NCBI GenBank assembly: GCA_963700145.1
Contig: OY969474.1
Location: forward strand, 4,512,001-4,576,000
Source of the DNA: an uncultured Acidobacteriota bacterium
GTDB taxonomy: Bacteria; Acidobacteriota; Thermoanaerobaculia; Multivoradales; UBA5704
Length of the DNA: 64,000 nucleotides
Direction: 5' to 3'
Under the pieces are notes generated by a model, which was given only the letters and a program-made list of their open reading frames with translations, did not search any database and was not told where the DNA came from. A program made the translations under genes and the position numbers. Of the stretch, positions 24,188 through 52,921 are shown one piece after another (positions within the stretch are counted from its first letter, which is position 1; every line of letters begins with the position of its first letter).

Positions 24188-24193
24188 CGACGT

Positions 24194-26215: not shown

Positions 26216-26303
26216 GGGCCCTCCTCAGAGGCGTCGCGCTTGCGCGCCAAGCAGTCCTACTTGATGCACGTCAACCGCCTCCGTGGAGTTGCATGGCTAG
26301 CCC

Positions 26304-29300
26304 TCAGCCCGCGCGTCGAATCTTCTCCGTGAGATCGATCCGCCTGATGCTTGCAGATTGACCAGCAGGATTCATGTAGTCATCTTGGCGGCATGTCAGC
26401 ACGACCACCTGCACGAGCGCGGCGGCTTGGTGCAGGGCCGCGCGGAACCACTCCAGCCGAGTCTGGTCGCTCTGAACGAGCTGATCGTCGAGGATGATCG
26501 CGCTCCCGATGCGTTCAGCGATCGCGAGGCGCAGGAGCGTTGCCAGCTGGTCCCGGGTACCGACGGACAGAACGTCCACCGCCCGTTGGCCACCGCCGGC
26601 CGCGATGTTCTGCACACGGAGATGCGGGCTCATGTCGAGGTCGCCGTAGCGGCCTTGGGTGAGCTCGCCGAACCGTCGGGCAACCTCACCCCCGAGCGCT
26701 CTGCCGAGATGCTGCGCGCCCGAGGCTTCGCAATCCTTCAGCGTGTCGCGAAGAAGCTTCCAGCCCTCGGCATCCAGCTCCAACGTGTGCTGCCGGTCGG
26801 CCGCCTCGTCGAGCGCGGCTTGGAGCGGTGCCTGCCGGTCGCGCGCGACCTTGCCGCCGACCCGCAGCAGCTCGCCTTCCACCTGATGCAGCTCGCCCTT
26901 CTTCTCCGTCAGCTCCGCTTCGAGGGTGGAGGCCGCCTTCTCGGCTGCTTGGACGTCAGCTTCGGTTGTGGGGGGATCCGGAGCGTCCAATGCAGCAAGG
27001 GTCGCCTGCTGCACGCGTACTTCCTCTTCGGCCTGGCGTAGAGGCAGGGACTCCGCGTGCTTCTTCTGCGCTTCCAGCTCTCCGCGCGCCTGGTCACGCT
27101 TGGAGCGCCCCTCGGTCGCGGCGGTGTCAGCTGTCTTGGTCGCGTCGACTGCGGTGGATAGTGCCTGCTCGGCGGCGTCCATCCTCGACTTCGCCGCGCT
27201 GACCGCGTTGCTCCCCGCGCCCTGCAGCGCGAGCAGCTCCGCCTTGATGCCGCCCGCCTCGACGTCGAGTGCAGCGATGTCGGTGGTGACGGTTCTCAGG
27301 AGCGCCTCCGGGTCGCCTGCCAGCGCGGCGCGCGCCCGTTCGGACTCCTCGCGAGCCGCCGCGAGCGACGCTGTGATTTGCGTGATCTGACCGCCAAGGC
27401 CGGCGAGCTCCGCAGACGCCGCGTCGCGGTCCGCTCTCGCTTTGATCTCGGCGCGATCCAGGTCCTTGGCTGCGTTCTCCGTCTGGCTCTCCCAGCCGGG
27501 GCCGACCGTCTTCACGATGGTGGCAAGCGCCTGGCGATCGCGCCCCTCCAGCGCTGCCTCGAGCTCGCGGACACGGCTCTCGTGTCTCGGGACCTCGGCG
27601 GATCGTGATTCGAGCGCCGAAGCCTTCTCGAGGTCGTGGCGCGCGTCCTTGTCGAGCTGCTCGGCCTGCCGCAAGGTGCCATCGGCATGTGCGCGCGCCT
27701 CCGAAAGCGCAGCAACGGAATCGAGGCCGGCCAGGATCAAGACGGGCTGGGCCTCTGCGTTCCACCGCTGCCGCAGCGCCTCGGCCCGCCTGCGATTGCC
27801 GGCATCTCCCGCGACGACGCGGACCTCCGCCACATCCTCGATCGAGAGCTCGATCGCCCGGTTTGCGTCGACGGTGAGGTCGGCGCCGGCGCGGCTCGGC
27901 TCCCCGCCGTCAACGCGGACCTCCACCTCGATACCGCTCTTCCTGAGGGAGATGGTCGCCGACAGGCCCCCTCCGAGGGCGGCCTCCGCTCGTTCCAGCT
28001 CGCCATGGAGCTCGTGGAGCGCCTTGATGGTCCCCGCCTCGGGAAGGGAACGCGCAGCGACCGCCGACCGGAGCTGGGCGGCCTCCTGACTAGCGCCCTG
28101 CGCCTTGGCCTGTAGCTCCGCGGCTTGCTGGCGGGCCTGGAGGAGCGTGCTCAGCGCCTCGGCGGCCTCGCTCCAGCGCCCGTACGCCAGCAGGCCTTGG
28201 AGCTGCTCCCGCTGGGCTCGGGCCTCTGCGAGGGCTTGGTCCGCCTTGCTGAGCCGCGCACGAGCAGCGACCGCCTTGCCTTCGATCTCCGCGTTCTGCG
28301 CTTCCAGCTTCGTCACGCCCGCGGCGCAGCCGCGAGCGTGTTCGGCGGCCTTCTGGCGAGCTACGATGCCGCCGCGCCGGACTTCGGTCGCGGCGAGCGC
28401 TTGCTCGAGCTTGGCTACCTTGAGCGCGCGCTTGCTCGCGGCCTTCTCGCTGGTCGCCTCGGCGTGGGCCTCCCTCGCCGCGGCAAACGCTGCACGCGCG
28501 GCGTCCTCGGCGGCGCGCGCTTCGGTGAGCGAAGCCTCCTGTGCGGCCGTCGCGGCAACCAGCGCGCCCAACTCCTGTTCCTTCGCCCCAACGCGAGCGC
28601 GCTCCTCCTCGATGCGCCGGAGCGCCTCCCTTGCCTGGTCGAGCCCGTGCAGCGCTGCAGCCAACCGACGGACTCTCGTCAGCCGTTCATCTGCTTCGTG
28701 GCGCCGCTCCGCTAGGTTCCCTACGCTGTCGCGCAGGGCCCTCAACCGGCTCTCGACCTCCTCGGTTGACCGCAGCTGCTCGCTGAGGGCATCGAGGTCG
28801 TCGCGCAGTCTCGTCACCTGCTCGGCGGCCTGGGTCATGGGCGAGCTCTTGCCGCGCTTTAGCTTCCCCGTCGGGCTGAAGTGCTGGTCGCACTCTGCCT
28901 CTGCCTGGTCGAGGAGTCTCTTGAACCGCGGGTCGCGGGCCAGGCCCTGCAGGGCTCGCGTGAGACGCAGCCGCCCAGACTCGCCTGGATCCGGGTCCAT
29001 CTCCAGGCTCTCCTCGAGGATCGCGGCGACGTCGGTCTGCTCCGCGAGGAGGACGTGGGAGAGGAAGGTCTGGGGCAGGCCGCGCGGAGCTCCTGCGCGC
29101 GCGCCCGCGAGTGGGGCTCCCCACTCCAGCATCTTGCGCAGGCGCTCGTCGACCTCGCGGCCCTTCGTCTCGTTCAGGAAGTCGCGCCCGTCCTTGGACG
29201 ACTCCAGGAAGGACGAGCCGCCGCGGCTGCCCCCGAACGACTTGGTGACCCTCCAGAGGCGGTCGTCGGCGTCGGCGAAGGTGAGCTTCACCTCCGGCGA

Positions 29301-29498
29301 AAAGTCACCGCGCCACGGAACGAACTTTTCCGCCTCCGAGGAGCCGTGCGGCAGGAGCAAGACGGCCCGGATCGCCGCCGCGAGCGAGGACTTTCCGAGG
29401 TCGTTCGGGCCGTAGAGGATGTTGAGCCCGGGACCGAGCTCCACCTCCGCATGCTCGATCCCGCAGAAGTGATCGACCACGAGGCGGACGAAGCGCAC
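26304..29498 (-). CDS. SMC/SbcC-like (YhaN-type) coiled-coil ABC ATPase
   Basis: YGPNDLGKSS Walker A, a long Ala/Glu coiled coil, LSVGTRDQ signature and IILDDQLVQSD Walker B; GTG at 29498 is 2 nt after the nuclease stop. Confidence 0.85.
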   Translation of the reverse strand: MRFVRLVVDHFCGIEHAEVELGPGLNILYGPNDLGKSSLAAAIRAVLLLPHGSSEAEKFVPWRGDFSPEVKLTFADADDRLWRVTKSFGGSRGGSSFLESSKDGRDFLNETKGREVDERLRKMLEWGAPLAGARAGAPRGLPQTFLSHVLLAEQTDVAAILEESLEMDPDPGESGRLRLTRALQGLARDPRFKRLLDQAEAECDQHFSPTGKLKRGKSSPMTQAAEQVTRLRDDLDALSEQLRSTEEVESRLRALRDSVGNLAERRHEADERLTRVRRLAAALHGLDQAREALRRIEEERARVGAKEQELGALVAATAAQEASLTEARAAEDAARAAFAAAREAHAEATSEKAASKRALKVAKLEQALAATEVRRGGIVARQKAAEHARGCAAGVTKLEAQNAEIEGKAVAARARLSKADQALAEARAQREQLQGLLAYGRWSEAAEALSTLLQARQQAAELQAKAQGASQEAAQLRSAVAARSLPEAGTIKALHELHGELERAEAALGGGLSATISLRKSGIEVEVRVDGGEPSRAGADLTVDANRAIELSIEDVAEVRVVAGDAGNRRRAEALRQRWNAEAQPVLILAGLDSVAALSEARAHADGTLRQAEQLDKDARHDLEKASALESRSAEVPRHESRVRELEAALEGRDRQALATIVKTVGPGWESQTENAAKDLDRAEIKARADRDAASAELAGLGGQITQITASLAAAREESERARAALAGDPEALLRTVTTDIAALDVEAGGIKAELLALQGAGSNAVSAAKSRMDAAEQALSTAVDATKTADTAATEGRSKRDQARGELEAQKKHAESLPLRQAEEEVRVQQATLAALDAPDPPTTEADVQAAEKAASTLEAELTEKKGELHQVEGELLRVGGKVARDRQAPLQAALDEAADRQHTLELDAEGWKLLRDTLKDCEASGAQHLGRALGGEVARRFGELTQGRYGDLDMSPHLRVQNIAAGGGQRAVDVLSVGTRDQLATLLRLAIAERIGSAIILDDQLVQSDQTRLEWFRAALHQAAALVQVVVLTCRQDDYMNPAGQSASIRRIDLTEKIRRAG

Positions 29499-29500
29499 CC

Positions 29501-30643
29501 TCAGGCCACCTTCCGCACCAGCGTGTAGAGGTGGTAGAGAGCCCGCCGTGCGACCTCGGCCTGCGGGCCTGTCTCCAGGTCCTGGAGGCGTCGCACCGTC
29601 TCGAGCACTGCGTCGGGCATGTCGGTGAAGAGCTGGTCGATGTTGCGGGTGTCGAGCTCGAGGAGCGATCGGTCGCACCTCAGGATGCCGACCTTGGGCC
29701 GCACAGCCTCGCTCCCTGCGAGCTCACCGAGGATCCGCTCGGCCTCTTCGTACTCGGCAGCGGGGAGGCTCGCGGCTATGGTGAGCTCGAGGACTCGCTG
29801 GGAGAGGTCGGGACGCGCGGCAAGCGCCCGCAAGGCTTCGAGACTCTCGACCCGGATCGACTCCCATCGCCACTTCGCGACGCGCTCCTTCTCGACCCGC
29901 ACCCGCCGGCGCTGGGTGATGAAGACGAGGGCAACGTGTCCGGGATCCTTGTCGCCGAAGGTTGTGGGCTCGGGTGCGCCGGGATACACAGTGGGCTTGT
30001 CGGCGGGCGGAAAGACGCGGAAACCGTGCGTGTCGCCGATTGCGAGGTAGTCGAACCCGCGCTGGACGGCCGCGTCGGGCGCGATGGGGAAGTTCGTCTG
30101 GTAGTCGTCCATCTCGAACGTGCTGCCGTGGACGAGGCCCACCCGGATGCGTTCGTCCCCGAGCGCGCGGGCCGGAAGAGCGAGGGCGATGTCCTTGCTC
30201 TGAGCGGAAGACCGGCACGGGGTGGCATGTAGCTCGGCGCCGTCCTTGAGCTGGAACGTGAAATCGTCACGGTCGATCACGTGGACGTGCGCCGGAAGCT
30301 TCCTGCGGAAGGACCCAGTGGGATCCCAGACCGAGTCCGGCAACAGCGGGTCGTGATTGCCGGGCAGTAGGAAGACGGGGCGGTGCGGTGAGGCGCGGCG
30401 CGCGATCAGGCTCGCGAGACCGTCTGCCCACTTGGGATCGGGCCTCGGCTCGTCGAAGAGGTCGCCCGCGCAGAGGACGGCGTCCGCCTCGTAGCGATCG
30501 GCGACGCCGAAGATCTGCTCGACGACGTCCAGGCGAGCGCGCATCAGCTCGAGCTCCTGTTCGTCGCTAAAGCCACGGAACCGCATCCCCAGATGCCAGT
30601 CGGCGGTGTGCACCAGTGTGAGGGCCACGTCGTCCTCCGTCAT
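29501..30643 (-). CDS. Mre11/SbcD-like (YhaO-type) metallophosphoesterase nuclease
   Basis: HTADWHLG, AGDLFD, PGNHD, VHGS, AIGDTH and YPGAPEP motifs; ATGA overlap with the helicase stop. Confidence 0.88.
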   Translation of the reverse strand: MTEDDVALTLVHTADWHLGMRFRGFSDEQELELMRARLDVVEQIFGVADRYEADAVLCAGDLFDEPRPDPKWADGLASLIARRASPHRPVFLLPGNHDPLLPDSVWDPTGSFRRKLPAHVHVIDRDDFTFQLKDGAELHATPCRSSAQSKDIALALPARALGDERIRVGLVHGSTFEMDDYQTNFPIAPDAAVQRGFDYLAIGDTHGFRVFPPADKPTVYPGAPEPTTFGDKDPGHVALVFITQRRRVRVEKERVAKWRWESIRVESLEALRALAARPDLSQRVLELTIAASLPAAEYEEAERILGELAGSEAVRPKVGILRCDRSLLELDTRNIDQLFTDMPDAVLETVRRLQDLETGPQAEVARRALYHLYTLVRKVA

Positions 30644-33606
30644 TCGAGGAGCATCTCCAGCTCGAAGAGCCGTTCTACAGTGGCGGTCGAGTACCGGCGC
30701 GCGAGGAGCCGCTCTCGACAGCGGCGGTAGGTGTCGTCGTCGCGCCGCTCCAGCCGGTCGATCTCTGCTTCGATCGCCTCGATCTCGACCGCCAGCCTTC
30801 CGAGCAGGCCCTCCGCCTCTTCGCGGGCGTCCAAGCTGAGCGCCGCGTCCCGCCGCGCGCGTGCCTCCTCGCTGCGACGCTCGAGGTCGCCTCGGTCGCG
30901 GCGGCGCAGGAGGAGCCGATCCTCGATGTACCGCTCCACCTGCTCGAGCCCACGGTCGAAGCGCCCCGCCTCGCCGCTCGTCGCCGCCTGCCGGTCCGCA
31001 AAGAGCGCCTCCTCGACGATGTCCTCGAAGACCTCGTCGGGAGCCACCCCAACGAGCCCCTCGGGCAGGTCGCTGATCTCGGACAGCAGCAGCGCCTCGC
31101 CGAGGTGCGGAGCCAAAGCCGTCTCGTCGCCTTCAAAAAGCGCTACGGGGATGAGCCGCTCGACCGGTTCGAGGCCCTCGTAGCGGACCCGCAGGAGCGC
31201 GAACCGGCCGCGACGGCTGCGACGAGCGACGAGCTCGGCCGGTGCCTCGGGGCCGAGCCTGATGGTCACCGCCCGCTTGCCGTCGCGCGGAGTGCGGGCG
31301 GCTGCGATTGCAGAGAGGACGAGCGGATGAGAGAGGTGAAGGGACTCGTCCGTCCCGCCGGAGGAGCCCACGGCTACCGCGAGCCCCTCACGAAGCCCCT
31401 CCGGAAGCGCCGCGCAGGGCTCGACTCGGAGGAAGGTCCCGCTCTCGCCAACAACCCTCTCCCAGCCGGCACCGATGGCCGCCAGGTAGGAGGTGACGAG
31501 TCGCTCCATGTCCGCGTCGAACTCCGCGAGCGCAGCGGGAAGCTCGTCGCGCCGCTTCGCAAAAACGCCGCGGACCTCCTCGTCGAAGGCGCTCTCGATG
31601 AGGCGGGCCGTCTTGTTGCGCTCGTCCTCGAAGCGCTCGCGCTTCTCGCCGACGCTGTCGCGTAGCTGCCGCAGCTCGGCCTCCACCTCGTCGATCGTTC
31701 GCGCGCGCTCCCAGATCCGGTTGAGGCTCGCCTCCAGCTCGACGCCGAACGTCCCGGCCAGCACTTCAGGCGTCGGCTCACCAGCTCGGTGCAGGACGAC
31801 GTCCGAGGCATCGAGCACGGTCCCGAAGAGGTCGAGCTTGCGGCTCAGGATGTCGAAGGTGAGGCGCGCGGCCTCGTTGTCCCGGGCGAGGAAGTTGATG
31901 ACGGTGACGTCGCGCTCCTGGCCGTAGCGGTGGCAGCGGCCGATGCGCTGCTCGATGCGCTGTGGGTTCCAGGGCAGGTCGTAGTTGACGACTGTCTCGC
32001 AGAACTGGAGGTTCAGGCCCTTGGCGCCAGCTTCGGTCGACACCAGGACCTTCGAGCGGGTCTTGAACTCGTGGACGAGGGCAAGCCGAACCGCCACGTC
32101 GCGGCTTGGTCGCGAGTGGGTGGAGAGCTCAGAGCCGACCTCATCCCACCAGCGATCGAGTGCTTGACGTGCGCGCGGGGTGGCGTTGTCGCCGCGAAAC
32201 AGCGTGACCTCCTCGTCTTGCACGAGGCCGCTGCCGATTAGAAGGCTCCGCAGGTATTCCTGAGTGACGAGCGACTCGGTGAAGATGACGACCTTGCCGC
32301 TGCCCTCGCCGCGGCGGCCGCGATCGAAGATCAAGCGGACGGCCTTGAGGAGGGCGCGCGACTTACCGTCGTCGCGAAGGGCGTTGGCCCGGCGAATGAA
32401 GTCCTCGACTCTCGCGAGCTCGCCGCGGGCATTCTCTGGCGCCACCGCAGCGGGGGTCGAGCCAGCTGCAGGCTCGTCGACTTGCTCGACCAGTTCCTCG
32501 TCCTCGAGATCCGCCACGAAATCGGCGCCGGCCGCCTCGGCTTCGGGCATGCCCTTCAGAAGGCGGCGTAGACGCCCTGCGACCTTCTCGAGGCTCGCCG
32601 CGAGGGCGGCGGTCGAGGAGGCCATGAGCCGATGAAATCCGATGAGGAGAAGCCGACGGTGGTTCCCCTGGAACGCAGCGAGGTTTGGCTCGAGGAGGTA
32701 GCGGGTGACGTCTTCGTAGAGGAGGCGCTCGTCGGCGCTCATCGGGTACTCGTAGAGCCGCGCCTGGCGGTCCACGAACGGCCGGCTCAGGAACTCCTGC
32801 GCCTGACGCCGCAGGGTCCGCTTGAGAACGACCTGAGTTCGACGGCGCAGCTCGTGCGACTGCCCCTCGGCCATGTCGCGCTCGTCGCGATCGCAGAAGG
32901 TGTCGCGGAAGGTGCGGAGGTCACCGAGGAGAGTGCCCGTCGGATCGACGAAGCGAACGAGCGCCCACAGCTCTGACAGGTTGTTCTGGATTGGCGTCGC
33001 CGTGAGGAGCAGGACGGGCGTGCGGCTCGCGCTAATCAGGTCGAAGATCCGGCCCGCCGTGCGCGCCGACGGCGATTCGTCGCGGAGGTTGCCGGCAGCG
33101 TCGAAGCGCCGGTGAAGGCCCGCGAAGCTCTCGTGGGCCTCGTCGATGACGATCAGGTCGAAGGGGTCGCTGGCGAGGAGCGCCGCCTGGCCGCGCTCGC
33201 CCCCGGCAGCCTCGCGCCCCGCCAGGAAGACACCGTCGCCCTCGAATGCTGCGGTGTCAGGCCGCCCTTCGCGCGCGTCGATGCCGAAGAGGGTGTAGAG
33301 CTCCTGCCGCCATTGGCCGAGGAGGGGCTTCGGCACGATCAGCAGGATGCGGCGAGCCCCCTCCGCGCGGAGCTGAGCGATGACCAACCCCGCCTCGATC
33401 GTCTTCCCGAGGCCCACCTCGTCGGCGAGGATGCAGCCGCCCTCCCCGAGCCTCGACAGGGCGAAGATGACGGCTTCGATCTGGTGGGGGTTGGCGTCGA
33501 TATGGCCCGACCGCTGCGGAGCGGCATAGCGGCGCAGCTCGTCGGAGCGGCGCAGGCGGACGAGGTCCTCTGCGTACCATCGCATCTGGAGAGGGTGCAG
33601 GGTCAC
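30640..33606 (-). CDS. SNF2-family helicase
   Basis: NPHQIEA, ILADEVGLGKTIEAG, IDEAH, LLTATPIQN, STEAGAKGLNLQ and YDLPWNPQRIEQRIGRCHRYGQ; coiled-coil C-terminus. Confidence 0.9.
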   Translation of the reverse strand: MTLHPLQMRWYAEDLVRLRRSDELRRYAAPQRSGHIDANPHQIEAVIFALSRLGEGGCILADEVGLGKTIEAGLVIAQLRAEGARRILLIVPKPLLGQWRQELYTLFGIDAREGRPDTAAFEGDGVFLAGREAAGGERGQAALLASDPFDLIVIDEAHESFAGLHRRFDAAGNLRDESPSARTAGRIFDLISASRTPVLLLTATPIQNNLSELWALVRFVDPTGTLLGDLRTFRDTFCDRDERDMAEGQSHELRRRTQVVLKRTLRRQAQEFLSRPFVDRQARLYEYPMSADERLLYEDVTRYLLEPNLAAFQGNHRRLLLIGFHRLMASSTAALAASLEKVAGRLRRLLKGMPEAEAAGADFVADLEDEELVEQVDEPAAGSTPAAVAPENARGELARVEDFIRRANALRDDGKSRALLKAVRLIFDRGRRGEGSGKVVIFTESLVTQEYLRSLLIGSGLVQDEEVTLFRGDNATPRARQALDRWWDEVGSELSTHSRPSRDVAVRLALVHEFKTRSKVLVSTEAGAKGLNLQFCETVVNYDLPWNPQRIEQRIGRCHRYGQERDVTVINFLARDNEAARLTFDILSRKLDLFGTVLDASDVVLHRAGEPTPEVLAGTFGVELEASLNRIWERARTIDEVEAELRQLRDSVGEKRERFEDERNKTARLIESAFDEEVRGVFAKRRDELPAALAEFDADMERLVTSYLAAIGAGWERVVGESGTFLRVEPCAALPEGLREGLAVAVGSSGGTDESLHLSHPLVLSAIAAARTPRDGKRAVTIRLGPEAPAELVARRSRRGRFALLRVRYEGLEPVERLIPVALFEGDETALAPHLGEALLLSEISDLPEGLVGVAPDEVFEDIVEEALFADRQAATSGEAGRFDRGLEQVERYIEDRLLLRRRDRGDLERRSEEARARRDAALSLDAREEAEGLLGRLAVEIEAIEAEIDRLERRDDDTYRRCRERLLARRYSTATVERLFELEMLLE

Positions 33607-33688
33607 TGAGTTCCTCGACAGCCGCCGATCTGACTCACTGCGGTCGCCTGTACGAGCTTCGCAGCTGGGCCCCTTGGCGCGCCCATGT

Positions 33689-35762: not shown

Positions 35763-35767
35763 GGTCG

Positions 35768-41300: not shown

Positions 41301-42306
41301 GTGTCTCGATGCTCGCGTAGTCCTCAGCGATCGTCCTTCCCGTCGCCTCGCTCTTTGGGCTCGCCGGGTCGGCGTGCGCCTCTTCGTAGATCGCGAGCAG
41401 GAGGTCGAAGGCGTAGAGCAGAAAGTGACCGCTGCCGCATGCTGGGTCGAGCACGCGCAGGTCGCGCGGGTCCTTCTTCGCGCGCGGCGCGAACTCCTCG
41501 CCGGGCTTGCGCACCATGTACGCGCATTTGTCCGCGAGCGCGGTCTCCGTGCCGCGCATCTCGTACCAGATGCGACCAAGCGTGTTGTCGGTGAGGAACT
41601 GGACGACGTAGCGCGGCGTGAAGAACTGATTCCGCACGGCCAGCTCGCGGCTGTTGCGCGGCTCTTGGCTCTCCTCGCGCATCTTGCGGCGCTCGTCGCC
41701 GCCGTTGAAGTACTGGTAGACCCAGCCGATCGTCTCGTCCTCGCCCCAGACGCTCGCCAGCTCCGCGCCATTCAGGAGGGCGAGCAGCGCCTCGAAGGCG
41801 GCCCTGCGCGGCCAGAGCACCGACGCCGGGTCGCGTCGGTCGAAGAGGACCTTGATCTCGGTGGAAAGCTCGTCGAATAGAGATTCGATGTAGAGCCGAT
41901 ACCCCGTGCTGTCAGGGAGAAGGAGGAGGCCGGCGGCCAAGCCGCAGAACTCCCGGTAGCCCGCCGAGTCTTCTCCCTTGCTGATGCACTCCTGCACCAG
42001 ATCGCGCGCCTCCAGCATCTTGAGCGCCACGAACCGGTTGAGCGTCGTGAACGCGGCGTCGCGGAGATAGTCCGCTATGGCCTCGGCATCCTTCATCCCG
42101 GCAGCGCGCTTGTGCTCGATCGAGGCCACGATCCGCTCGCGCTGGGCTGCGCGACGGGGATCGAGGTGCCGGCCGGCTACCGCCGCGACGGCGCCCGAGC
42201 GTTGGACATCGAAGTCGCCCTCGAGCTGCGCGGCGAAGTCCTCCGCGAGCAGGCCCCGGGCGCGCTGCGTCGCCCGTTCGATGGCGTTGCGTGTGTCCTT
42301 GTCCAT
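38341..42306 (-). CDS. pglX: BREX adenine-specific DNA methyltransferase PglX
   Basis: AAFTTLNRFVALKMLEAR, IGWVYQYF, QFFTPRYVV, VLDPACGSGHFL and MNPPF; located between brxC and pglZ. Confidence 0.9.
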   Translation of the reverse strand: MDKDTRNAIERATQRARGLLAEDFAAQLEGDFDVQRSGAVAAVAGRHLDPRRAAQRERIVASIEHKRAAGMKDAEAIADYLRDAAFTTLNRFVALKMLEARDLVQECISKGEDSAGYREFCGLAAGLLLLPDSTGYRLYIESLFDELSTEIKVLFDRRDPASVLWPRRAAFEALLALLNGAELASVWGEDETIGWVYQYFNGGDERRKMREESQEPRNSRELAVRNQFFTPRYVVQFLTDNTLGRIWYEMRGTETALADKCAYMVRKPGEEFAPRAKKDPRDLRVLDPACGSGHFLLYAFDLLLAIYEEAHADPASPKSEATGRTIAEDYASIETLRRAVPGLVVAHNLYGVDIDPRCAQIAQLALWMRAQRAFRDLSLARVDRSQIRRSNIVIAEPLVADEQLTKEFVSRLGDAELGRVFIALVAKLNLAGDLGLLLPVETFMSQTPERGKTRSLFAPPEERIRAALLRFVSEEARTSTRRRLFADDAEQGIGLLAVAEKSFDVVLMNPPFGEPTNAGKKASNPHLASCDDDLGAAFIHASATRWARGGLTGVVSSSTLWFKHTLATWRQRILVGAESSVAVGAHLGGHVLDNASVGAAATVVGPAREKAGAVFFRCLRAEDKAAALAASIKDRRQGIEQPPAFAVTIDALRAYRTSPLVYWISTALRSDLTRFPALEGTGAEVRQGVACADDPRFVRAWWELPVERVGAGEDWLPFAKSSEYSPFWDDITWIIRWERDGREVRAYEKARPQNIQFFGRPGVTFPARAVLGFNPRAFPSGIGFGHMGSVAFPKSTSAGTLLGYLSSRPAEYILSFSNGSIQGRKGAYQNHYEVGQVGDLPWPDFTPEVAKQVGELGDSISSAAMLLLRNDETTHQYHPSQALCTAKTLDEFITAELAEDERLVGAALSARASLDNLVSTSLGFKREDVEAMKEEFAECDAPTDGPWCPQRPALDNDRRRETARALTSLAVGVAIGRFDVRRFAEDAPKLSPLACFDVAPTTFLKSAKPRGYPIDLPSSAMVVVDRADPDFADRLLEEALAHIWPNAAPDALAQLCGALRVDHLSSYLSDAGASGFYTDHARRYSKGRRRAPLYTWFGTTSGSFGVLLMAHAANSDTLFILRNEILAPRLARAERAAEAARSEAGEKGNTATRAALAAAEALVTELREFAGELDRVIPLWAPSVDDGVVINMAPFFRLIPHRDSRTKAEAAWKELCDGDLDWSRSAMRFWPERVVPKCATDRSFAIAHGLEEVFWVEGSDGKWAARKRPTRPIDELVRERTSPAVKAALKSLLEAPQLTGANGPRKGGRRKRAGTGLAEEV

Positions 42307-42318
42307 CCGAGGCGCCCT

Positions 42319-45300
42319 TTACTGAACGATGACCTTCTTGCCCGCGCCGATCAGCCGGGCACATTCCTCGCGGACTCCGTCGAGCGCCGCGTCGAGCTGC
42401 TCCTCCGTCTCCACACCACCGGCGAAGTAGCTCCCGAGGTTCACGGCGACGACCCGCTCGCCGTCGAGGAGCTTGCGAATCTCGGCCACAGCACTGCGTA
42501 GGCGGCCGTCGCAGGCGTCTCGATCGGCACGGAGCTGGGGAATCGGCGTGCGCCCCTCGTCCCGGTGCGTTGCCCGCTGAAACGGCCCGGCGAGTCGCTG
42601 CTGCTCGGGTTCGGCGATCTCGTCCCAGCCAGGTGTCTTGACGAGGGATTCGTAGGCCTGGGAGTAGTCGGCGATCCGGGACGCGAGCGCTCGCGCGAAG
42701 CGGGCCTCGTATTCCGACTCGATCGCCTTGGTGTGCTGCTCGATCGCCACCAGATCGCGGAAGAAGGTCTCCCGCAGCAGAAGCTCTTCCAGCTCGTGAG
42801 CTCGGGTTCGGAGGTCCTCGCCGATGTCGGGCTCCTGGCGAAGAAATCCCCAGAGCGCGGCCTGGGCGTGGCGCGCGCGCTCGAGATCGTGAAGTCTGGG
42901 CTCGGTCAGGGCGGCTTCGAGCTCGAGGGAGCGCTTGATCGCGTCCTTGATCGTGCGATGGCTCGCATTGAAAGTGGCGATCGCAGCATCCTCCGTTCCC
43001 CGGAGGATGGCCTTCATCTGCCCCAGCGCTCCTTCCAGGAGGCTCCCGCCGGGCAGACGATGGGCGGTGAGAAGAGAAGAGGCCGAAGCCACGGTGTCCT
43101 CGTTACGGGCGATCTCGCGCCGGAGCTCGGCCGCCACCGCTCCCGCGTTCAGTTCGCGCACTTCGCTGCCAAACGTCTCCCGGAACGCCTCGGCGGCGCG
43201 GATGAGCTCCTCGAACTCGATCCCCTTCTTCGGGCGGAAGGAGGCTTGGCGGAAGAGGTTGTTGTTCGAGAAGGTCTCTCGCGCTTCGACCCCGGTCGTC
43301 GAGTCCAGAATCTGGCCCTTGCTCGTCGCCTCGATCTTCCCAGCACGCAGCAGTGACAACACCAGCAGCCGGACGATCTCGAAGTCCCAGCCGAAGGGCT
43401 CCTTCGCGAGCTCATCGGTCAGATAGCGCCCGCTCGCGGTGTCGCCGTAGTTGGCGCGTTCCTCGATCCGGTCGAGAATCTCCTTGAGCGGTCCGCTCTC
43501 GACGCGGAACACGGTTTTCCCCTTCTCGTCGCGCAGCAGGCCGAGGCTGGCGAACACGGGGGGGAGCCCTTGCAGGTTGTCGGCGGAAAAGAGGGCGTCG
43601 GCGCCCTTGCGGACCTCCGTTGCCTTTGCTGCGGCCTCCTTGAAGCGGTCGAAGACCTCGGGCAGCACCTGCCCGAGCACCTCGGTTGCGGTCTTGCCGA
43701 CGTCGACCGCCCGGTCGCCTGGGCTTCGGTCGTTGCCCCGGAAGTAGATGCGGCCGGCGAGGCAGGCACCGCGAACGAGCCGGCGCAGCTCATCGGTGTG
43801 GCGCCGCAGCCGAAGGCGCTCCTCGGCGAGGAGCGCCGGCGTGTCCTCGCCTTTCGTCTCGCGCTCCTTGCGGGCCAGCATCTCCTTGGAGCGAAACAGC
43901 TGAACGGTCTCACGGTCGATGGCGTCCGTCAGTCCGACCGCCCAGAAGACGCTCTTGCGCTCCTGCTGGCTCCTCACCCTAAGCTCGGCGGCCAGACTTT
44001 CAAACGCCTTCCCGTCTTCAGCGAGATAAAGCTGGAAGACGAGGTCGCCGGCGGTGAGCTCCCGTCCTTGGATCGACAGGCCTGCCTTGAAAGTCTTGGT
44101 GTCGTGGAGGGTGAACGAAGGCTGTGGCTGCCAGAATCCCGCGAGCAGCTCGGCATAGATGCGGTGAGCGTCGCCCGGCTTCGGGTTGATGCCGTTGCGC
44201 AGGCGCTCCCAGTCGTCCTCGGCCGGCGTGGGGATTCGGTAACCGTCGTCCCCGCGGCGCACCTGGTGCGCGGCCTCGAGCTGCCGCAACGCCTCCTTGA
44301 CCGATGCGAGCTGCCCATCGGCGTCGACGCTCGGATGAAGCGCCGCGGCGATGTTCTCGGCGCTGCGGTGCACGCTCTTGACGTACTGGAGGAGACAGAT
44401 GACCTTGGCGACGGGCTGCGCGAGCGGGTGATCGACCTTGCGCGCGATCTCGGCGATCTTGGCCCTCACCTCCGATCCGATGTTCCCTTCGACCAGGTCG
44501 TAGACATGGTCCAGGCGCACGAGGGCGCCAATGGGTTGATCGGCGAGGTTGACCGCCGGGTTGATCAGCAGCTGCTGCGCGAGCTTGATGATGGTGCGGT
44601 TCGCGCCCCCGACGTGCTTGCTCGCGCCGCCTTGGGTGCGCAGGCCCGAGACGACCTGGATGATGAGGTCGATCTGGTAGGGCAGGAGCGGGTAGAGGTC
44701 GACGAAGGCATCCCGGGTGAGCTCGGGCAGCTTGATGTCTGCGGTCAGCCGGATGTTCTCGGTCAGCCGACCACGATGCTCCTCGAAAAGCTGGCCGAGG
44801 GCCGTCTGTGCCGCCGCGTTCTTGGACAGGACTCGGCGGCTCGTGACCTCCGAGATGTCCGACGGCTCGAGGTGGACCTGAAGGGGAAAGCGATCCATCA
44901 AGCGGGCCAGCTCGATCTTCTTGTCGTCGAGGCCGCTGACCAGCTCGCCCAGCTTTTCCTGGGAGGTCACGACGACCCAGTGCTTACCCCGGCCCTTGAC
45001 GCCGAGGCTCTGAACGATCGCCTGCAGGTCGAGCATCTTCTGGACGTCGCGGGCGACGAACTGGCCGACTTCGTCGACGACGAACATCAGCGCGCGCCCG
45101 GGCTTGCGACGCTTCATCAGCTCGCCGGCGCGCTCGGCGAGCTTGCCGGGAGAGATGTCGGCCTTGTTCTTGACCGCCTTCACCCAGGAGTCGGCCGCGG
45201 GATAGGTCTCGGGGTCGAGGCTGTGCAGAACCCGGCTGGCCTCGCTGAGCGCGAAGGCCACCTTGCCCTTCTCCGCGTTCCACTCCTTGCCGAACAGGCG

Positions 45301-45861
45301 CCTGTACTCCCCCTCGAATTGCTCCAGCTGACCTTTCTCCTCCAGCCCGATCTCCAACTCCGAAAGATCCAGGTCCTTCGCGTAGCCGAGGCTCTGGAGG
45401 AAGAGCCCGTACATGATCTCGGTGAGGGTTTGGTTGCCGCTGCGAATGCCGCGATCCGTCGAGACGTCGAAGATGACGGCGTGGGTGGGGATGCGTTCAT
45501 TGATGCCGCGGAGGAGCACGGCGAGCTTGTTGTCGACGGTGCGCTCGGCGAACCGCACGCCCGCGGGCGAACCGGCAATCGCCCGATTCGCGATCGCCAG
45601 GCCGAGCATCTTGGCGAAGCTGGACTTGCCCGACCCGAAGAACCCCGAGACCCAGACCGCGATCCCTTCGTGGGGCTTGTTGGGAGTCTCCAGGTAAGCG
45701 TCGAAGATGCCGGTGTAGTGACTCCGAATCGCGTCGGTGACGACGTACTCGCTGATCTCCTCCCGGATGATCTCTTCGTCGGTCTGATCGACCTTGATGA
45801 CTTCTTCGATCCGACGGTGGATGTCGTTCGCGAAGAGGCTCTTGATCGAGGTGGGCGTCAT
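42319..45861 (-). CDS. brxC: BREX P-loop ATPase BrxC
   Basis: IEEVIKVDQ..EYVVT, VWVSGFFGSGKSSFAK, FVVDEVGQF, VVTSQE and YPLLPYQ motifs. Confidence 0.92.
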   Translation of the reverse strand: MTPTSIKSLFANDIHRRIEEVIKVDQTDEEIIREEISEYVVTDAIRSHYTGIFDAYLETPNKPHEGIAVWVSGFFGSGKSSFAKMLGLAIANRAIAGSPAGVRFAERTVDNKLAVLLRGINERIPTHAVIFDVSTDRGIRSGNQTLTEIMYGLFLQSLGYAKDLDLSELEIGLEEKGQLEQFEGEYRRLFGKEWNAEKGKVAFALSEASRVLHSLDPETYPAADSWVKAVKNKADISPGKLAERAGELMKRRKPGRALMFVVDEVGQFVARDVQKMLDLQAIVQSLGVKGRGKHWVVVTSQEKLGELVSGLDDKKIELARLMDRFPLQVHLEPSDISEVTSRRVLSKNAAAQTALGQLFEEHRGRLTENIRLTADIKLPELTRDAFVDLYPLLPYQIDLIIQVVSGLRTQGGASKHVGGANRTIIKLAQQLLINPAVNLADQPIGALVRLDHVYDLVEGNIGSEVRAKIAEIARKVDHPLAQPVAKVICLLQYVKSVHRSAENIAAALHPSVDADGQLASVKEALRQLEAAHQVRRGDDGYRIPTPAEDDWERLRNGINPKPGDAHRIYAELLAGFWQPQPSFTLHDTKTFKAGLSIQGRELTAGDLVFQLYLAEDGKAFESLAAELRVRSQQERKSVFWAVGLTDAIDRETVQLFRSKEMLARKERETKGEDTPALLAEERLRLRRHTDELRRLVRGACLAGRIYFRGNDRSPGDRAVDVGKTATEVLGQVLPEVFDRFKEAAAKATEVRKGADALFSADNLQGLPPVFASLGLLRDEKGKTVFRVESGPLKEILDRIEERANYGDTASGRYLTDELAKEPFGWDFEIVRLLVLSLLRAGKIEATSKGQILDSTTGVEARETFSNNNLFRQASFRPKKGIEFEELIRAAEAFRETFGSEVRELNAGAVAAELRREIARNEDTVASASSLLTAHRLPGGSLLEGALGQMKAILRGTEDAAIATFNASHRTIKDAIKRSLELEAALTEPRLHDLERARHAQAALWGFLRQEPDIGEDLRTRAHELEELLLRETFFRDLVAIEQHTKAIESEYEARFARALASRIADYSQAYESLVKTPGWDEIAEPEQQRLAGPFQRATHRDEGRTPIPQLRADRDACDGRLRSAVAEIRKLLDGERVVAVNLGSYFAGGVETEEQLDAALDGVREECARLIGAGKKVIVQ

Positions 45862-45876
45862 CGGTGGCTTCCCTGG

Positions 45877-46452
45877 TCAGAAGATCTTCGGCCGATAGTT
45901 GTGTTCAGCGTCGAGCACGCCCATGAAGCGGAGACCTGCCGCGCCATCGAGGTCTCCGGGATAGAAGAGGACAGTTGGCACGTGGACTTGGCCCTTGAGC
46001 TGCTCGAGCAGAGAAAATGTGCGGTAGACGGGGAAGAGGGCACCTGTCCGAAGGATGAACACCAGGTCTCGTCGCGGATCGGGGTCCGCGGGCATTCGAG
46101 CAACGACGAGATCCACGAGCGGGGAGTACTCGGACAGCACGGAGTGGATGGTCTCGACGATGGTGTCGACGCCCTGCTCGCGTTCGGCCGCGAACCATTC
46201 CTCGAGCGGTCGCTGCGACCGCATGGCCTCGTCGAGGCATTCGGCAAGGGAGATCCTGTGGACTCGCTTGCCCTTCTGCGAGAGGCGCGTCTCCAGTAGC
46301 GTGACTTGCTGCCGCAGCGCGAACTCCTCCTCCGGGTCGTAGCGGAAGAGTGCGTACGGCATGTCGTGGTAAGCGCTGATCCGCTGGGCCGGATCCACGA
46401 GCTCGAGGATCGGCTCGAGGTCCTGTTTGAGGCGCCGCTCGAAGTCGCTCAT
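45877..46452 (-). CDS. brxB: BREX protein BrxB (DUF1788)
   Basis: ALFRYDPEEE, GALFPVYR and LFYPG..LRFMG..NYRP motifs; ATGA overlap with brxA. Confidence 0.88.
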   Translation of the reverse strand: MSDFERRLKQDLEPILELVDPAQRISAYHDMPYALFRYDPEEEFALRQQVTLLETRLSQKGKRVHRISLAECLDEAMRSQRPLEEWFAAEREQGVDTIVETIHSVLSEYSPLVDLVVARMPADPDPRRDLVFILRTGALFPVYRTFSLLEQLKGQVHVPTVLFYPGDLDGAAGLRFMGVLDAEHNYRPKIF

Positions 46453-47234
46453 GCCACCATCCTCTCGGCGAACTCGCGCGCGCTCGCGCACGGCAACGAG
46501 ATCTGCACCAGACTGCCGGCAGCCTGGTAGTCGACCTTTCGGAACTGGTGCAGCCGGAGGAGCTCGCGTTCGACCTCGCTCGGCCTCATCAGGTAGAGGC
46601 GCCAGTCCGGAGACGCGATCAACTTTGCGGGCCCTCCCTGCTCGTCGCGGATCGCATGGAGGAGATACAGAAAGCTGCGCTCCGGCAGATGGTAGGAAGC
46701 GAGCTCCTTGCTGACCGCACCCCGGAGCAGGCCGAAGTCTGCGGCGATCTTGAGCAAGCCAGCAGCGACGCGCTCGGTGGTTTGCACCGACCAAGCGTGC
46801 TCGGTCGTGCCGCCGCGCTTTTCGACGCCCCGGAGGTACGGCACGACGTCTTGGGTGCGGATCCGAAAGGCCCCGGCATCGAACGCCTCGAAGAGCCACC
46901 CGGTGATGAAGTCCCGAACGAGGAACTCGTCGCGAGTCATGTGCCAGAGCAGGAGCGGCTTCCACTCTTCGACGGGCACGCCGTTCTGCGCCAGGGTCAC
47001 CAGCGACCGGTCGCGCGAATCGGGATCGAACCGCCGATTCAGTACCTTCGCGACATCGCGCAGCCAGGTCGCGCTCCGAGCACCGATGAAGTTCTCGACG
47101 CGCAGCCGCTCGAGGTTCTCCCGTTTCGAGCGCGTCAAGTCCCAAGCCGCGAAGGTGGCATACGTCTCTTCGACCATCGCGCCCTTGACGACGGTGAACG
47201 ACGAGACCACGTTGGAGCGGGACGCTCGCCTCAC
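46449..47234 (-). CDS. brxA: BREX protein BrxA (DUF1819)
   Basis: NFIGARSATW..VLNRRF, LVRDFI and WSVQTTERVA..LLK..DFGLL motifs; directly upstream of brxB. Confidence 0.82.
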   Translation of the reverse strand: MRRASRSNVVSSFTVVKGAMVEETYATFAAWDLTRSKRENLERLRVENFIGARSATWLRDVAKVLNRRFDPDSRDRSLVTLAQNGVPVEEWKPLLLWHMTRDEFLVRDFITGWLFEAFDAGAFRIRTQDVVPYLRGVEKRGGTTEHAWSVQTTERVAAGLLKIAADFGLLRGAVSKELASYHLPERSFLYLLHAIRDEQGGPAKLIASPDWRLYLMRPSEVERELLRLHQFRKVDYQAAGSLVQISLPCASAREFAERMVA

Positions 47235-47803
47235 GAGTCGATCCTCATGAAGGGCACGACGGGGGCGCCTGCCTCACCGAGCGTGAAGCCCAGAGCCAGT
47301 AGTGCGATGTCTTCGTCAGAGCCCGAGTAGATGCCGGGAATTGCGACGGCGCGTCCTTCCGCCGATCGCCGCAGGCGGGCAGCCGCTTCGAGCTCGGCGC
47401 TCTTGACCAGCCCCAGCGCTCCGAGTTCGTTTCGCAGGTGCTCCCAGCGCAATCGCTCCACGGCGAGGAAGAACGGCTCCCACTCGGGCGCCGCGTCCAG
47501 CCAGACTTCGAATCGAGCGTCGAGCATCTCCTCCAACGCGGCTGGCAAGCCCCAGAGCGTTACGGCCCCAGGCGGCGCGTACACCTCACAGCACCGGTGG
47601 GCCGCCACCGCGAAGACGGAACGAGCTTGAGCGAAGCGGTGAGTGCGCGGTAGGCCGCGGCGGAGGGCCTTCGCTCCGAGAGGCCCGAGCTGGCCCCGGG
47701 TGTTCCACCACCTCGCGAAGTCCATCTCGCCGGCGCGCGCGATCGCGACCCGGAGCTTGAAGAGGCGCTCCACGTCCACGATCGAAGCGACCAGCGAGCT
47801 CAT
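47231..47803 (-). CDS. brxE: BREX protein BrxE
   Basis: LRVAIARAGEMD..RWWNT, PRTHRFAQARSVFAVA..C and VTLWGLP..EE match the BrxE pattern; GTGA overlap with brxA. Confidence 0.78.
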   Translation of the reverse strand: MSSLVASIVDVERLFKLRVAIARAGEMDFARWWNTRGQLGPLGAKALRRGLPRTHRFAQARSVFAVAAHRCCEVYAPPGAVTLWGLPAALEEMLDARFEVWLDAAPEWEPFFLAVERLRWEHLRNELGALGLVKSAELEAAARLRRSAEGRAVAIPGIYSGSDEDIALLALGFTLGEAGAPVVPFMRIDS

Positions 47804-48015
47804 CGGCGGGCCTTCTCGTCGTCGGAGGGCTTTCGCGCCGCGCCCCCAGCGCGCACCCATTCGTCGACTTCGTCGGTCTTGAACTTCCAGAGCCGGCCGA
47901 CCCGATGGCCCGGCATACCCTTCTCCGAGACCCAGGAGTAGACGGTGTCGCGGCTCACTCCGAGGTAGTCCGCGATCTCTTCCACGGACAGCCAGCGATC
48001 GGAGACGTTGGGCAT
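47800..48015 (-). CDS. Excisionase-family (HTH_17) DNA-binding protein
   Basis: RWLSVEEIADYLGVSRDTVYSW...GHRVGRLWKFKTDEVDEW; ATGA overlap with brxE. Confidence 0.85.
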   Translation of the reverse strand: MPNVSDRWLSVEEIADYLGVSRDTVYSWVSEKGMPGHRVGRLWKFKTDEVDEWVRAGGAARKPSDDEKARR

Positions 48016-48057
48016 TGCGCGCTCCATGCGGATCGGACGCGAAAGTAAATTGCTGAA

Positions 48058-48079
48058 CAGCTCAATCATAGTCGAGCTG
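48058..48079 (-). promoter_or_regulatory. Inverted repeat around a -10-like TATGAT upstream of the HTH-BREX operon
   Basis: Minus strand reads CAGCTC-gacTATGATt-GAGCTG, about 45 nt upstream of the HTH start; no well-spaced -35 box is visible. Confidence 0.35.
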
Positions 48080-49275: not shown

Positions 49276-49289
49276 CCCTCGCTCTGAAC

Positions 49290-49319
49290 TTGAACTCTGA
49301 ACAAAAGTCCCCGTATGCT
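49290..49319 (+). promoter_or_regulatory. Putative sigma70-type promoter
   Basis: TTGAAC-18 nt-TATGCT, 37 nt upstream of ATG 49357; CTCTGAAC direct repeats at 49282 and 49295. Confidence 0.4.
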
Positions 49320-49356
49320 AAGAGTCTTGGGGGGAGTTGTCCACACCCTGACTGTC

Positions 49357-49947
49357 ATGAAGACCACACATTCTGACCCCCTGGCCCTGGAGGAGATCGC
49401 CGCCGTGCTGCGCGCTGCGCGCGAGGGTCGCCACGGCGTGCGCGACCACGCGATGCTCCTGACCCTCTATCACCACGGTCTGCGCGTAAGCGAGCTCTGC
49501 CGGCTGACTCTTCCCGACCTCGACCTCGGGAGTCGGAGGCTGTGGGTGGAGCGACTCAACCGAGGCCGCTCGGGCGTGCATCCGATACCCGACGACGAGG
49601 CGCGGGCGCTCGCCGCTTACCTCGCCGAGCGTGAGGACCAAGGCACGTTGAATCTCTCGGCGCTGTTCCTCAACGAGCGTCGGGCAACGCTCAGCCGCAA
49701 CGCGGTGTACTACCTGGTGCGTCGTGCCGGCGAGGCCGCCGGGCTCGAGCGCCCGTTGTTTCCACACCTTCTACGCCGCTCGACCGGCTCGAAGCTCGTC
49801 GGCGAGGGGCATGACGTTCGACTCGTTCAGGACTATCTCGGCTTGCGTTCCGCTCGCAGCGTGCTCCGGTTCATCGGCGAGGCACCGCCGGACAACCCGA
49901 ACGGCGAGCGGTTCACGGCACTTTGGGGGGAGGCAGGAGGAGGATGA
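49357..49947 (+). CDS. FimB/FimE-like tyrosine recombinase homologue with a degenerate active site
   Basis: RDHAMLLTLYHHGLRVSEL, PHLLRRS and GHDVRLVQDYLGL..SVLRF; the expected catalytic K, LGH His and Tyr are replaced by N, L and F. Confidence 0.8.
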   Translation: MKTTHSDPLALEEIAAVLRAAREGRHGVRDHAMLLTLYHHGLRVSELCRLTLPDLDLGSRRLWVERLNRGRSGVHPIPDDEARALAAYLAEREDQGTLNLSALFLNERRATLSRNAVYYLVRRAGEAAGLERPLFPHLLRRSTGSKLVGEGHDVRLVQDYLGLRSARSVLRFIGEAPPDNPNGERFTALWGEAGGG

Positions 49948-52910: not shown

Positions 52911-52921
52911 GCTACTGCCCC
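52846..52921 (-). tRNA. tRNA-Ala (anticodon CGC)
   Basis: GGGGCAGTAGCTCAGCTGGGAGAGCACCACGTTCGCAACGTGGGGGTCGAGGGTTCGAATCCCTTCTGCTCCACCA: 76 nt, G3:U70 pair, TTCGAA T-loop and encoded CCA. Confidence 0.96.

Follow-up and report, generated by a model that had tools for sequence, protein, structure and literature searches.

A 64,000-nucleotide (nt) stretch of contig OY969474.1 from an uncultured Acidobacteriota bacterium (assembly GCA_963700145.1, forward-strand positions 4,512,001 to 4,576,000), hereafter called the window, carries a BREX (bacteriophage exclusion) locus followed directly by three genes that encode an SNF2-family ATPase, an Mre11/SbcD-like nuclease and an SMC/Rad50-like ATPase (the trio). 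Comparison with homologous loci indicates that the trio forms a separate, conserved cassette, and that its position beside BREX reflects clustering in a defence island rather than fusion into one system. The SNF2 gene lies directly upstream of the nuclease gene in 28 of the 32 homologous loci whose upstream sequence reaches 1 kb or more, and none of the BREX core proteins finds a match at any trio locus surveyed. The BREX locus itself combines a BrxE-family gene with brxL, an arrangement that recurs elsewhere.

Synteny of the trio outside the window

The three genes of the trio follow one another on the minus strand.

30640 to 33606, minus strand: SNF2-family ATPase with a RapA-like C-terminal region, first trio gene (Pfam SNF2-rel_dom, Helicase_C and ResIII)
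29501 to 30643, minus strand: Mre11/SbcD-like metallophosphoesterase, second trio gene (Pfam Metallophos, 3.9e-13)
26304 to 29504 (start approximate), minus strand: SMC/Rad50-like ABC ATPase with a long coiled coil, third trio gene (Pfam SMC_N and AAA_23, both weak; PADLOC LmuB, 8e-10)

We surveyed the trio through its nuclease, the most specific marker of the three; in the genome collection, loci were retrieved with a profile and compared by tblastn with 14 window proteins. The 35 loci examined comprise 11 from a genome collection (L001-L011), 18 from metagenomes and 6 from genomes of the same phylum. Nucleases in the genome collection are 47-57% identical to that of the window and come from several phyla, the records being titled Polyangiaceae, Terriglobales, Gammaproteobacteria, Vicinamibacterales, Bryobacteraceae and others; SNF2 is directly upstream in all 11 and an SMC-like gene downstream in 10, the exception being L011, which has a truncated nuclease and no ATPase. 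Three of the metagenome loci were too short to judge, and 11 of the other 15 (at least 1 kb upstream) have an intact SNF2 gene. The trio appears in the same order in all six fetched genomes of the same phylum, for which at least 17 kb on each side was inspected where available. An SMC-like gene follows the nuclease wherever the sequence allows, except at L011, L088 and L089. Two copies look decayed: L084 retains two short SNF2 fragments (2757-2904), and the L011 nuclease is cut at residue 187 (10001-10561), with no ATPase.

BrxA, BrxB, BrxC, PglX, PglZ and BrxL gave zero tblastn matches across the 35 trio loci, about 20 of which have at least 5 kb of sequence upstream of SNF2. Genome content points the same way. 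Among 401 genomes sampled from the phylum, 8 have the nuclease at E <= 1e-40 (4 of 228 genera), 21 have BrxL and 5 match the BrxE_fam model, and the nuclease co-occurs with either of the others only in the window's genome; among the other 400 genomes, BrxL is present in 20, the nuclease in 7 and both in none. Relatives of the BREX locus tell the same story from the other side: no trio lies within 16 kb downstream of the BREX genes of one sampled genome (G091), or beside those of the Thioflavicoccus mobilis plasmid pTHIMO01. These data argue against the proposal of an earlier note on this DNA that the trio extends BREX as its effector. By that note's own yardstick, linkage of the three distal genes to BREX in homologous loci, the proposal is largely refuted: in those loci the genes are unlinked to BREX.

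A BREX locus with BrxE and BrxL

The open reading frame (ORF) listing and its translations place eleven genes on the minus strand between 48069 and 26304, in the order HTH-brxE-brxA-brxB-brxC-pglX-pglZ-brxL-SNF2-nuclease-ATPase (HTH, helix-turn-helix), and each was identified by family scans (PADLOC, Pfam, NCBIfam). The co-oriented run described in the earlier note is therefore there as described, and ORF coordinates bear out its account of junctions that overlap or lie within about 15 nt, with the largest gap, 82 nt, after brxL. The HTH gene starts at 48069; the start at 48015 given previously is an internal ATG. Junctions overlap by 4 nt at HTH/brxE (given the likely brxE start at 47803, relative to the HTH stop), brxE/brxA, brxA/brxB and SNF2/nuclease, and by 1 nt at pglX/pglZ. 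The other BREX junctions are gaps of 15, 12 and 5 nt, the nuclease/ATPase junction falls within 4 nt, and the widest gap runs from the brxL end at 33689 to the SNF2 start at 33606. The tight junctions inside the trio suggest that its genes are translationally coupled. The co-oriented run extends past both edges of the eleven genes, to a Ser/Thr kinase gene 96 nt upstream of HTH and gajA 88 nt downstream of the ATPase gene.

47800 to 48069, minus strand: small excisionase-type HTH protein, head of the BREX operon (Pfam HTH_17, 4.3e-17; NCBIfam MAD1, 83.1 bits, cut-off 80; excisionase domain, 72 bits)
47231 to 47860, likely start 47803, minus strand: BrxE-family protein (NCBIfam BrxE_fam NF033447, 132 bits, cut-off 40, full length, 2-169 of 169)
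46449 to 47234, minus strand: BrxA (PADLOC BrxA PDLC02454, 7e-111, full length; Pfam BrxA, 1.2e-17)
45877 to 46452, minus strand: BrxB (PADLOC BrxB PDLC02459, 3.4e-65; Pfam BrxB, 4e-18)
42319 to 45861, minus strand: BrxC P-loop ATPase (PADLOC BrxC, 2145 bits, 2-1180 of 1180; NCBIfam BREX_BrxC, 879.7 bits, cut-off 400)
38341 to 42306, minus strand: PglX adenine methyltransferase, a single ORF of 1321 amino acids (aa) (NCBIfam BREX_1_MTaseX, 540.6 bits, cut-off 500; PADLOC PglX, 1137 bits)
35768 to 38341, minus strand: PglZ (PADLOC PglZ PDLC02559, 1158 bits, 1-860 of 860)
33689 to 35762, minus strand: BrxL, split in the assembly (PADLOC BrxL, in two frames)
33607 to 33688, minus strand: brxL-SNF2 spacer, 82 nt, with no promoter-like or terminator-like site

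The type 1 core (brxA, brxB, brxC, pglX, pglZ and brxL) is complete, co-oriented and in canonical order (PADLOC, Pfam), and PglX, BrxC and BrxL pass the NCBI cut-offs. The locus differs from type 1 BREX in having the HTH and BrxE-family genes ahead of brxA, and in a PglZ that scores best on the BREX-6 model of NCBIfam (BREX_PglZ_6, 262 bits against a cut-off of 400) while lying under every curated PglZ cut-off, including those of BREX-1 type A (127.6 against 270.35 bits) and type B (69.2 against 400 bits). What it shares with type 6 (brxE-brxA-brxB-brxC-pglX-pglZ-brxD-brxHI) is the BrxE-family protein, the same kind of preceding HTH as in a true type-6 locus of the phylum (G003, below) and a PglZ nearest the type-6 model. 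Its distal end differs, however: BrxL follows PglZ in the position that type 6 gives to BrxD and an Lhr-like BrxHI helicase, and the only BrxHI/HII matches in the window are partial ones, by PADLOC, to the SNF2 core of the trio helicase. The remaining type-6 models also stay below cut-off, at 320.9 bits against 900 for PglX and 30.3 against 80 for the BREX-6 BrxE equivalog of NCBIfam; for BrxE only the broad BrxE_fam model is passed, and the PADLOC BrxE match is weak (6.5e-5).

The five genomes matched by BrxE_fam include the window's own, and the loci of the other four were annotated. G003 holds a true type-6 locus (HTH, BrxE with 242 bits on the BREX-6 model, BrxA, BrxB, BrxC, PglX-6, PglZ-6 and a DEXH helicase), in which the HTH ahead of BrxE is homologous to that of the window. 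In G091 the order is BrxE_fam-BrxA-BrxB-BrxC-PglX-PglZ-BrxL; the BrxL proteins of G091 and the window share 79-80% identity, and the G091 PglZ also scores best, below cut-off, on the BREX-6 model. The G101 locus reads BrxE_fam-BrxA-BrxB-BrxC-PglX up to the contig end, and that of G353 is interrupted by an IS91 transposase. A tblastn search of plasmids with the window PglZ reached pTHIMO01, on which RefSeq annotates a BrxE family protein, DUF1819, BrxB, BrxC, a methyltransferase with inserted genes, PglZ and BrxL. The window BrxE matched no plasmid by tblastn at 1e-5, despite the BrxE-family gene annotated on pTHIMO01, because the family is too divergent for such a search. At least three unrelated replicons thus have BrxE at the head of a BrxL-type BREX, and the NCBI pipeline already gives the protein its name.

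In the available passages of a recent study (PMC12839542, NAR 2026), BrxC and PglZ trees put types 5 and 6 within the type-1 clade, making them better treated as type 1 subtypes; BrxE is mentioned there once, as a protein that the 2015 scheme assigned to type 6 alone, and those passages do not spell out the BrxE and BrxL combination. The finding that BrxE is not restricted to type 6 supports the merging of type 6 into the type-1 clade. Of the earlier suggestion that this is a hybrid or new BREX subtype, the anatomy stands, BrxE and BrxL being present together; the one-off novelty does not, given the same order in G091 and on pTHIMO01 and the demotion of types 5 and 6 in that study. The window BREX is an ordinary variant inside the known type-1 clade, and one that is already annotated. 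The accompanying premise that BREX has no nuclease is dated, as nuclease activity has been shown for PglZ (PMC11974810, as cited in the passages of PMC12839542).

Several details distinguish these relatives. PglX is encoded by two ORFs in the relatives of the BrxE-plus-BrxL type (L110:8662-12860, L105:8652-13003, L123:5561-12464) and by one 1321-aa ORF in the window. The two ORFs overlap in G091 and G101, and on pTHIMO01 a gene for an ATP-binding protein and a DUF2290 gene lie between them. In G091, pglX and pglZ are in addition separated by a NucS-like gene. Gabija-like genes and a large kinase come after the type-6 BREX of G003 (L106:19173-19658, L107:1169-8477), echoing the BREX, Gabija and kinase company of the window.

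The brxL gene is split by a frameshift. Its N-terminal ~75 codons are in one frame and the remaining 599 in another, with the switch near 35536 (within 35531-35545); PADLOC BrxL positions 6-66 match in the frame starting at 35762, and positions 79-678 in the ORF 35488-33689. Removal of one base restores a frame of 690 codons, comparable to the BrxL open frames of relatives, which are mostly 686-703 aa. A near-identical public contig from run X1 (269 nt, 35455-35724, 3 mismatches, 1 gap) omits one letter at 35536, and related contigs from run X2 also omit one, at 35536, 35540 or 35541. The extra base falls in a GG/CC run and is a probable consensus error. Because the X1 contig lacks the extra base and the removal of one base restores the length seen in relatives, the frameshift is, on these alignments, probably an assembly error. 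One caveat here is that the X1 support amounts to one contig at depth 2.8, and that X1 may be the source sample of the assembly and hence not independent. The frameshift is there in the assembly, and if brxL were genuinely broken in the organism, BREX would only methylate and the neighbouring systems would bear the defence load. We consider this improbable, in view of the X1 contig, the sole near-identical one over the site, the letter dropped in the X2 contigs, and the otherwise complete match of both pieces to BrxL models, which no further stop interrupts.

The island and the trio's neighbours elsewhere

The part of the window up to ~53 kb belongs to an integrated mobile element at tRNA-Ala that carries a defence island. 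GC content is 0.60-0.70 up to ~53 kb and 0.72-0.78 beyond 54 kb, and near the transition the ORF of a large serine recombinase overlaps the tRNA gene. The lower-GC part contains a small tyrosine recombinase; in 1-21700 and 51312-52921 it carries, besides the serine recombinase, ParA- and ParB-like genes, a PLD-domain protein, glycosyltransferases (GC ~0.60), a 1225-aa DUF6094 methyltransferase-family protein and SSB (single-stranded-DNA-binding protein). The element looks integrative and possibly conjugative.

51312 to 52910, plus strand, and 52846 to 52921, minus strand: island boundary, a large serine recombinase abutting tRNA-Ala (Pfam Resolvase, Recombinase and Zn_ribbon_recom; ARAGORN)
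48166 to 49275, minus strand: Ser/Thr kinase with a Cys-rich N-terminal stretch, 96 nt upstream of HTH (Pfam Pkinase, 5e-45; PADLOC PD-T4-6, 4.6e-67, and mad6, 3e-60)
22139 to 26215, minus strand: Gabija, with gajA at 26215-24194 and gajB at 24187-22139 (PADLOC GajA, 637.5 bits, and GajB, 572.7 bits, both full length)

The Gabija assignment rests on a GajA with an OLD-like TOPRIM domain beside a GajB with a UvrD-helicase domain. The GC content of these genes is 0.605, compared to 0.66-0.70 for the BREX and trio stretch, and GC at third codon positions (GC3) is 0.69 in gajA, compared to 0.80-0.93 in the BREX genes and 0.81-0.86 in the trio. This clearly lower GC content suggests that Gabija was acquired separately. 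The 88-nt spacer ahead of gajA folds better than its shuffles (z = -2.5). The kinase is below cut-off on all NCBIfam kinase models and may act on its own as a defence of the PD-T4-6-like kind. A divergent 210-aa tyrosine recombinase (within 48166-49947) shows a likeness to FimB/E-type invertases, at 125.8 bits against a cut-off of 222. Phase variation of BREX by this recombinase was considered and rejected, as inverted repeats in 33-52 kb are imperfect, chance-level pairs.

Elsewhere, defence-type genes neighbour the trio in 6 of 13 annotated loci, a count from which Ser/Thr kinase matches to PD-T4-6 models were excluded because such kinases are generic. Directly upstream of the trio at L002 and L082 is a helicase of the PDC-S37/Hhe-like kind that carries an MTES_1575 nuclease domain. 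It is found in this position in G130 as well, and may be either a regular partner of the trio or a gene that tends to settle beside it. Its copies (L002:1408-6018, L082:1793-6859, L112:12232-17475) encode superfamily 1 helicases of 1536-1747 aa with the MTES_1575 domain at the C-terminus, in the same orientation and from different sources. The other neighbours are a type II restriction enzyme and a PDC-S03-like gene (L005), a Ppl/mad3-like ATPase and a Schlafen-domain gene (L006), an Hma-like helicase and methylase (L007), and a GmrSD-like HEC-05 gene (L010). Conjugation genes (relaxase, coupling-protein and secretion ATPase) adjoin the trio at L002, and an integrase, a transposase and a broken DUF6079 gene accompany it in G069. 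At L114-L117 and L120-L121 (genomes G186, G332 and G196) the trio shows presence/absence polymorphism, as a single cassette in a core region.

Possible roles of the trio and its known relatives

Scoring of 8000 candidates gave 1822 nuclease homologues at E <= 1e-3. Nineteen aligned sequences share the invariant columns D15-x-H17, G60-D61-x-x-D64, G95-N96-H97-D98, H172 and G203-D204-x-H206, which are Mre11-type motifs, with D204 standing where SbcD has a His. In a profile search of the PDB, matches to SbcD and Mre11 structures (1.7e-18 and weaker) cover the N-terminal ~90 residues, and the NCBIfam sbcd model gives 58.9 bits, below its cut-off of 77.65 and over the N-terminus only. The ATPase has conserved GPNxLGKS (Walker A), LSxGTxxQ (signature) and LDDxLxQxD (Walker B-like) motifs and long helical arms with a conserved non-helical segment in mid-coil. 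An alignment of 16 rows, one of them a 16-residue fragment, contains no conserved Cys pair in mid-protein that would form a CxxC zinc hook, and Rad50 models of NCBIfam score 18-34 bits against cut-offs of 700-1000. Distant nuclease matches occur in 231 plasmid records, among them a Rhizobium plasmid on which a 30%-identical nuclease is paired with an AAA-ATPase, without SNF2, amid ordinary metabolic genes. These features place the nuclease and ATPase of the trio in a broader family of SbcCD-like pairs that lack the hook.

The SNF2 core matches DrmD_b, BrxHI/HII and RapA models but misses every curated cut-off; the NCBIfam DISARM_DrmD_b match (414 bits, cut-off 950) covers the helicase core only (26-617 of 868). 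The last 389 aa are predicted to fold with a pLDDT (predicted local distance difference test) of 84.3, and the best PDB matches of this region are four RapA entries (E 6.5e-6 to 7e-5), with low TM-scores (template-modelling scores). A complex prediction for the nuclease with these 389 aa scored 0.00, was run without controls and is used here neither for nor against an interaction. The catalytic motifs of the trio are intact throughout: the Mre11-type motifs of the nuclease, the Walker A, signature and Walker B-like motifs of the ATPase, and the SNF2 and Helicase_C domains of the motor.

In BREX, PglX methylates host DNA at a short motif, and BrxA, BrxB, BrxC, PglZ and BrxL jointly block the replication of unmethylated incoming DNA. 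On the favoured reading the island consists of adjacent independent modules, namely a type-1-clade BREX with its HTH and BrxE-family genes, the trio, and Gabija. We envisage that the trio ATPase and nuclease would form an SbcCD-like, ATP-driven nuclease recognising DNA ends or abnormal DNA structures, and that the SNF2 motor would translocate on duplex DNA, loading the nuclease or stripping proteins off the substrate. A motor of the chromatin-remodeller type would in this way feed or unmask DNA for an SbcCD-like nuclease. Methylation-based self-marking is not expected for the trio, because no methyltransferase is conserved beside it. Its likeliest role would be the stand-alone restriction of phage or plasmid DNA.

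Taken as a whole, the reading of the trio as an autonomous cassette, most likely acting in defence, seems to us reasonably probable, and the trio is a plausible, uncharacterised candidate for a stand-alone defence system. A stronger version is put forward more tentatively. In it, the trio would be a new system, common among bacteria of soils and sediments, that acts against phages or plasmids independently of methylation; in this island it would back up BREX with a further layer that destroys DNA, while remaining separate from it. Several observations weigh against these views. The closest nuclease relatives (86-95% identical) fall outside the survey, as the collections exclude records near the window's genome. 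Four nuclease homologues have no intact SNF2 gene upstream, with remnants only at L084 and none at L085, L088 and L089. Viral contigs contain only phage Mre11-like genes 22-37% identical to the nuclease and no trio orthologue, no PADLOC model matches the nuclease at 1e-3, and no experiment or paper ties the trio to defence. Moreover, the neighbours at L004, L008, L093 and L098 (4 of 13 loci) are housekeeping or unassigned genes only, and in 3 of 9 sampled genomes of one genus (G186, G332 and G196) the trio is flanked by the genes for glutamyl- and glutaminyl-tRNA synthetase (GluRS and GlnRS), a placement that fits an accessory DNA-repair module. Read-through transcription from BREX into the trio is also possible in this genome, because the 82-nt spacer has no terminator-like site; no terminator-like or promoter-like site was found in 26000-36000, and the RNA fold of the spacer is no better than that of shuffles (z = -0.44). 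Such read-through would not make BREX and the trio one system.

These points bear on two other explanations. The trio could be an autonomous accessory DNA-repair module that landed in the island, that is, a second SbcCD-type nuclease for processing ends or hairpins with a dedicated SNF2 remodeller. The superfamilies of the nuclease (Mre11/SbcD) and the ATPase (Rad50/SMC-like), the Rhizobium pair amid metabolic genes, the housekeeping or unassigned flanks and the GluRS-GlnRS placement are all consistent with this. We nevertheless judge it rather unlikely, since the distribution is sporadic (8 of 401 genomes, 3 of 9 within the one genus), the cassette is spread over several phyla at 47-57% identity, and its contexts, here and in 6 of 13 annotated loci, are mobile or defensive. 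If the trio were instead built into a new BREX subtype as its effector, brought in through recognition of unmethylated DNA to destroy it, this would account for the co-orientation of the trio with brxL across 82 nt free of terminator-like sites and for their similar GC3, and the available passages of PMC12839542 describe BREX loci as often recruiting auxiliary nucleases beside the core. The classes named in those passages, however, are HNH, HKD, PD-(D/E)XK, TOPRIM/OLD, HEPN, PIN and Schlafen, and Mre11, SbcC and calcineurin have 0 occurrences in the main text of that paper. Given also that 35 of 35 homologous trio loci have no nearby BREX gene, that the BREX relatives examined (G091 and pTHIMO01) have no adjacent trio, and that no second genome in the 401-genome sample carries both, this explanation is very improbable. 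A BREX with an SbcCD effector, if true, would have explained how BREX kills phage DNA; the evidence says island clustering.

Two further defence systems were set aside. DISARM was rejected on the sub-threshold DrmD_b score and on finding no DrmA, DrmB or DrmC among the 16 window proteins scanned with PADLOC, the only DrmA match being a partial one (1e-29) to the SNF2 core of the trio helicase itself. MADS was considered because the HTH and kinase matches pointed to it; the HTH alone passes (MAD1, 83.1 against 80), and the NCBIfam MAD2, MAD3 and MAD6 matches are far below their cut-offs. A literature abstract describes MAD3-MAD4 as an OLD-type pair. In the full-text literature searched we found no cassette of SNF2, SbcD-like and SbcC-like genes described as a defence system or BREX accessory, although an earlier description is possible, and the accessible part of a preprint (10.64898/2026.07.06.735840) mentions only core SbcCD.

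What emerges is a conserved, horizontally scattered cassette that would couple an SNF2 motor to an Mre11/Rad50-like nuclease. Should a defence role be borne out, the trio would be a bacterial counterpart of the remodeller-assisted end processing known from eukaryotes. It resembles SbcCD and Mre11-Rad50 in setting a metallophosphoesterase with Mre11-type motifs beside a long coiled-coil ABC ATPase, with overlapping genes. It differs from them in the conserved non-helical mid-coil segment that the ATPase has instead of a conserved CxxC hook, in the restriction of the match to SbcD models to the N-terminal ~90 residues of the nuclease, and in the attached SNF2 gene. A possible counterpart is SbcEF (YhaN-YhaO), a second, hook-less SbcCD-like pair of Bacillus subtilis that is not known to have an SNF2 partner in Bacillus. 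The ESM Atlas neighbours of the trio ATPase carry AAA_23 and AAA_27, the latter the Pfam family of YhaN; the window ATPase itself, however, does not reach AAA_27 at E 1e-3 (Pfam).

Lamassu and Wadjet likewise lack a methyltransferase and combine a nuclease with an ABC ATPase that has a long coiled coil, and the trio ATPase has a weak LmuB match (36 bits, 8e-10). Lamassu was rejected as an identification, since no LmuA or LmuC match was found among the 16 proteins scanned, nor any to JetA, JetB or JetD of Wadjet; the trio differs further in its Mre11-like nuclease and its SNF2 motor. That motor is related in its core to the RapA, BrxHII and DrmD-type SNF2 ATPases, its C-terminal 389 aa match RapA structures, and BrxHII has the same RapA-like layout according to the available passages of PMC12839542. 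What sets the window SNF2 protein apart from these ATPases is its constant partners, the nuclease and the SMC-like ATPase.

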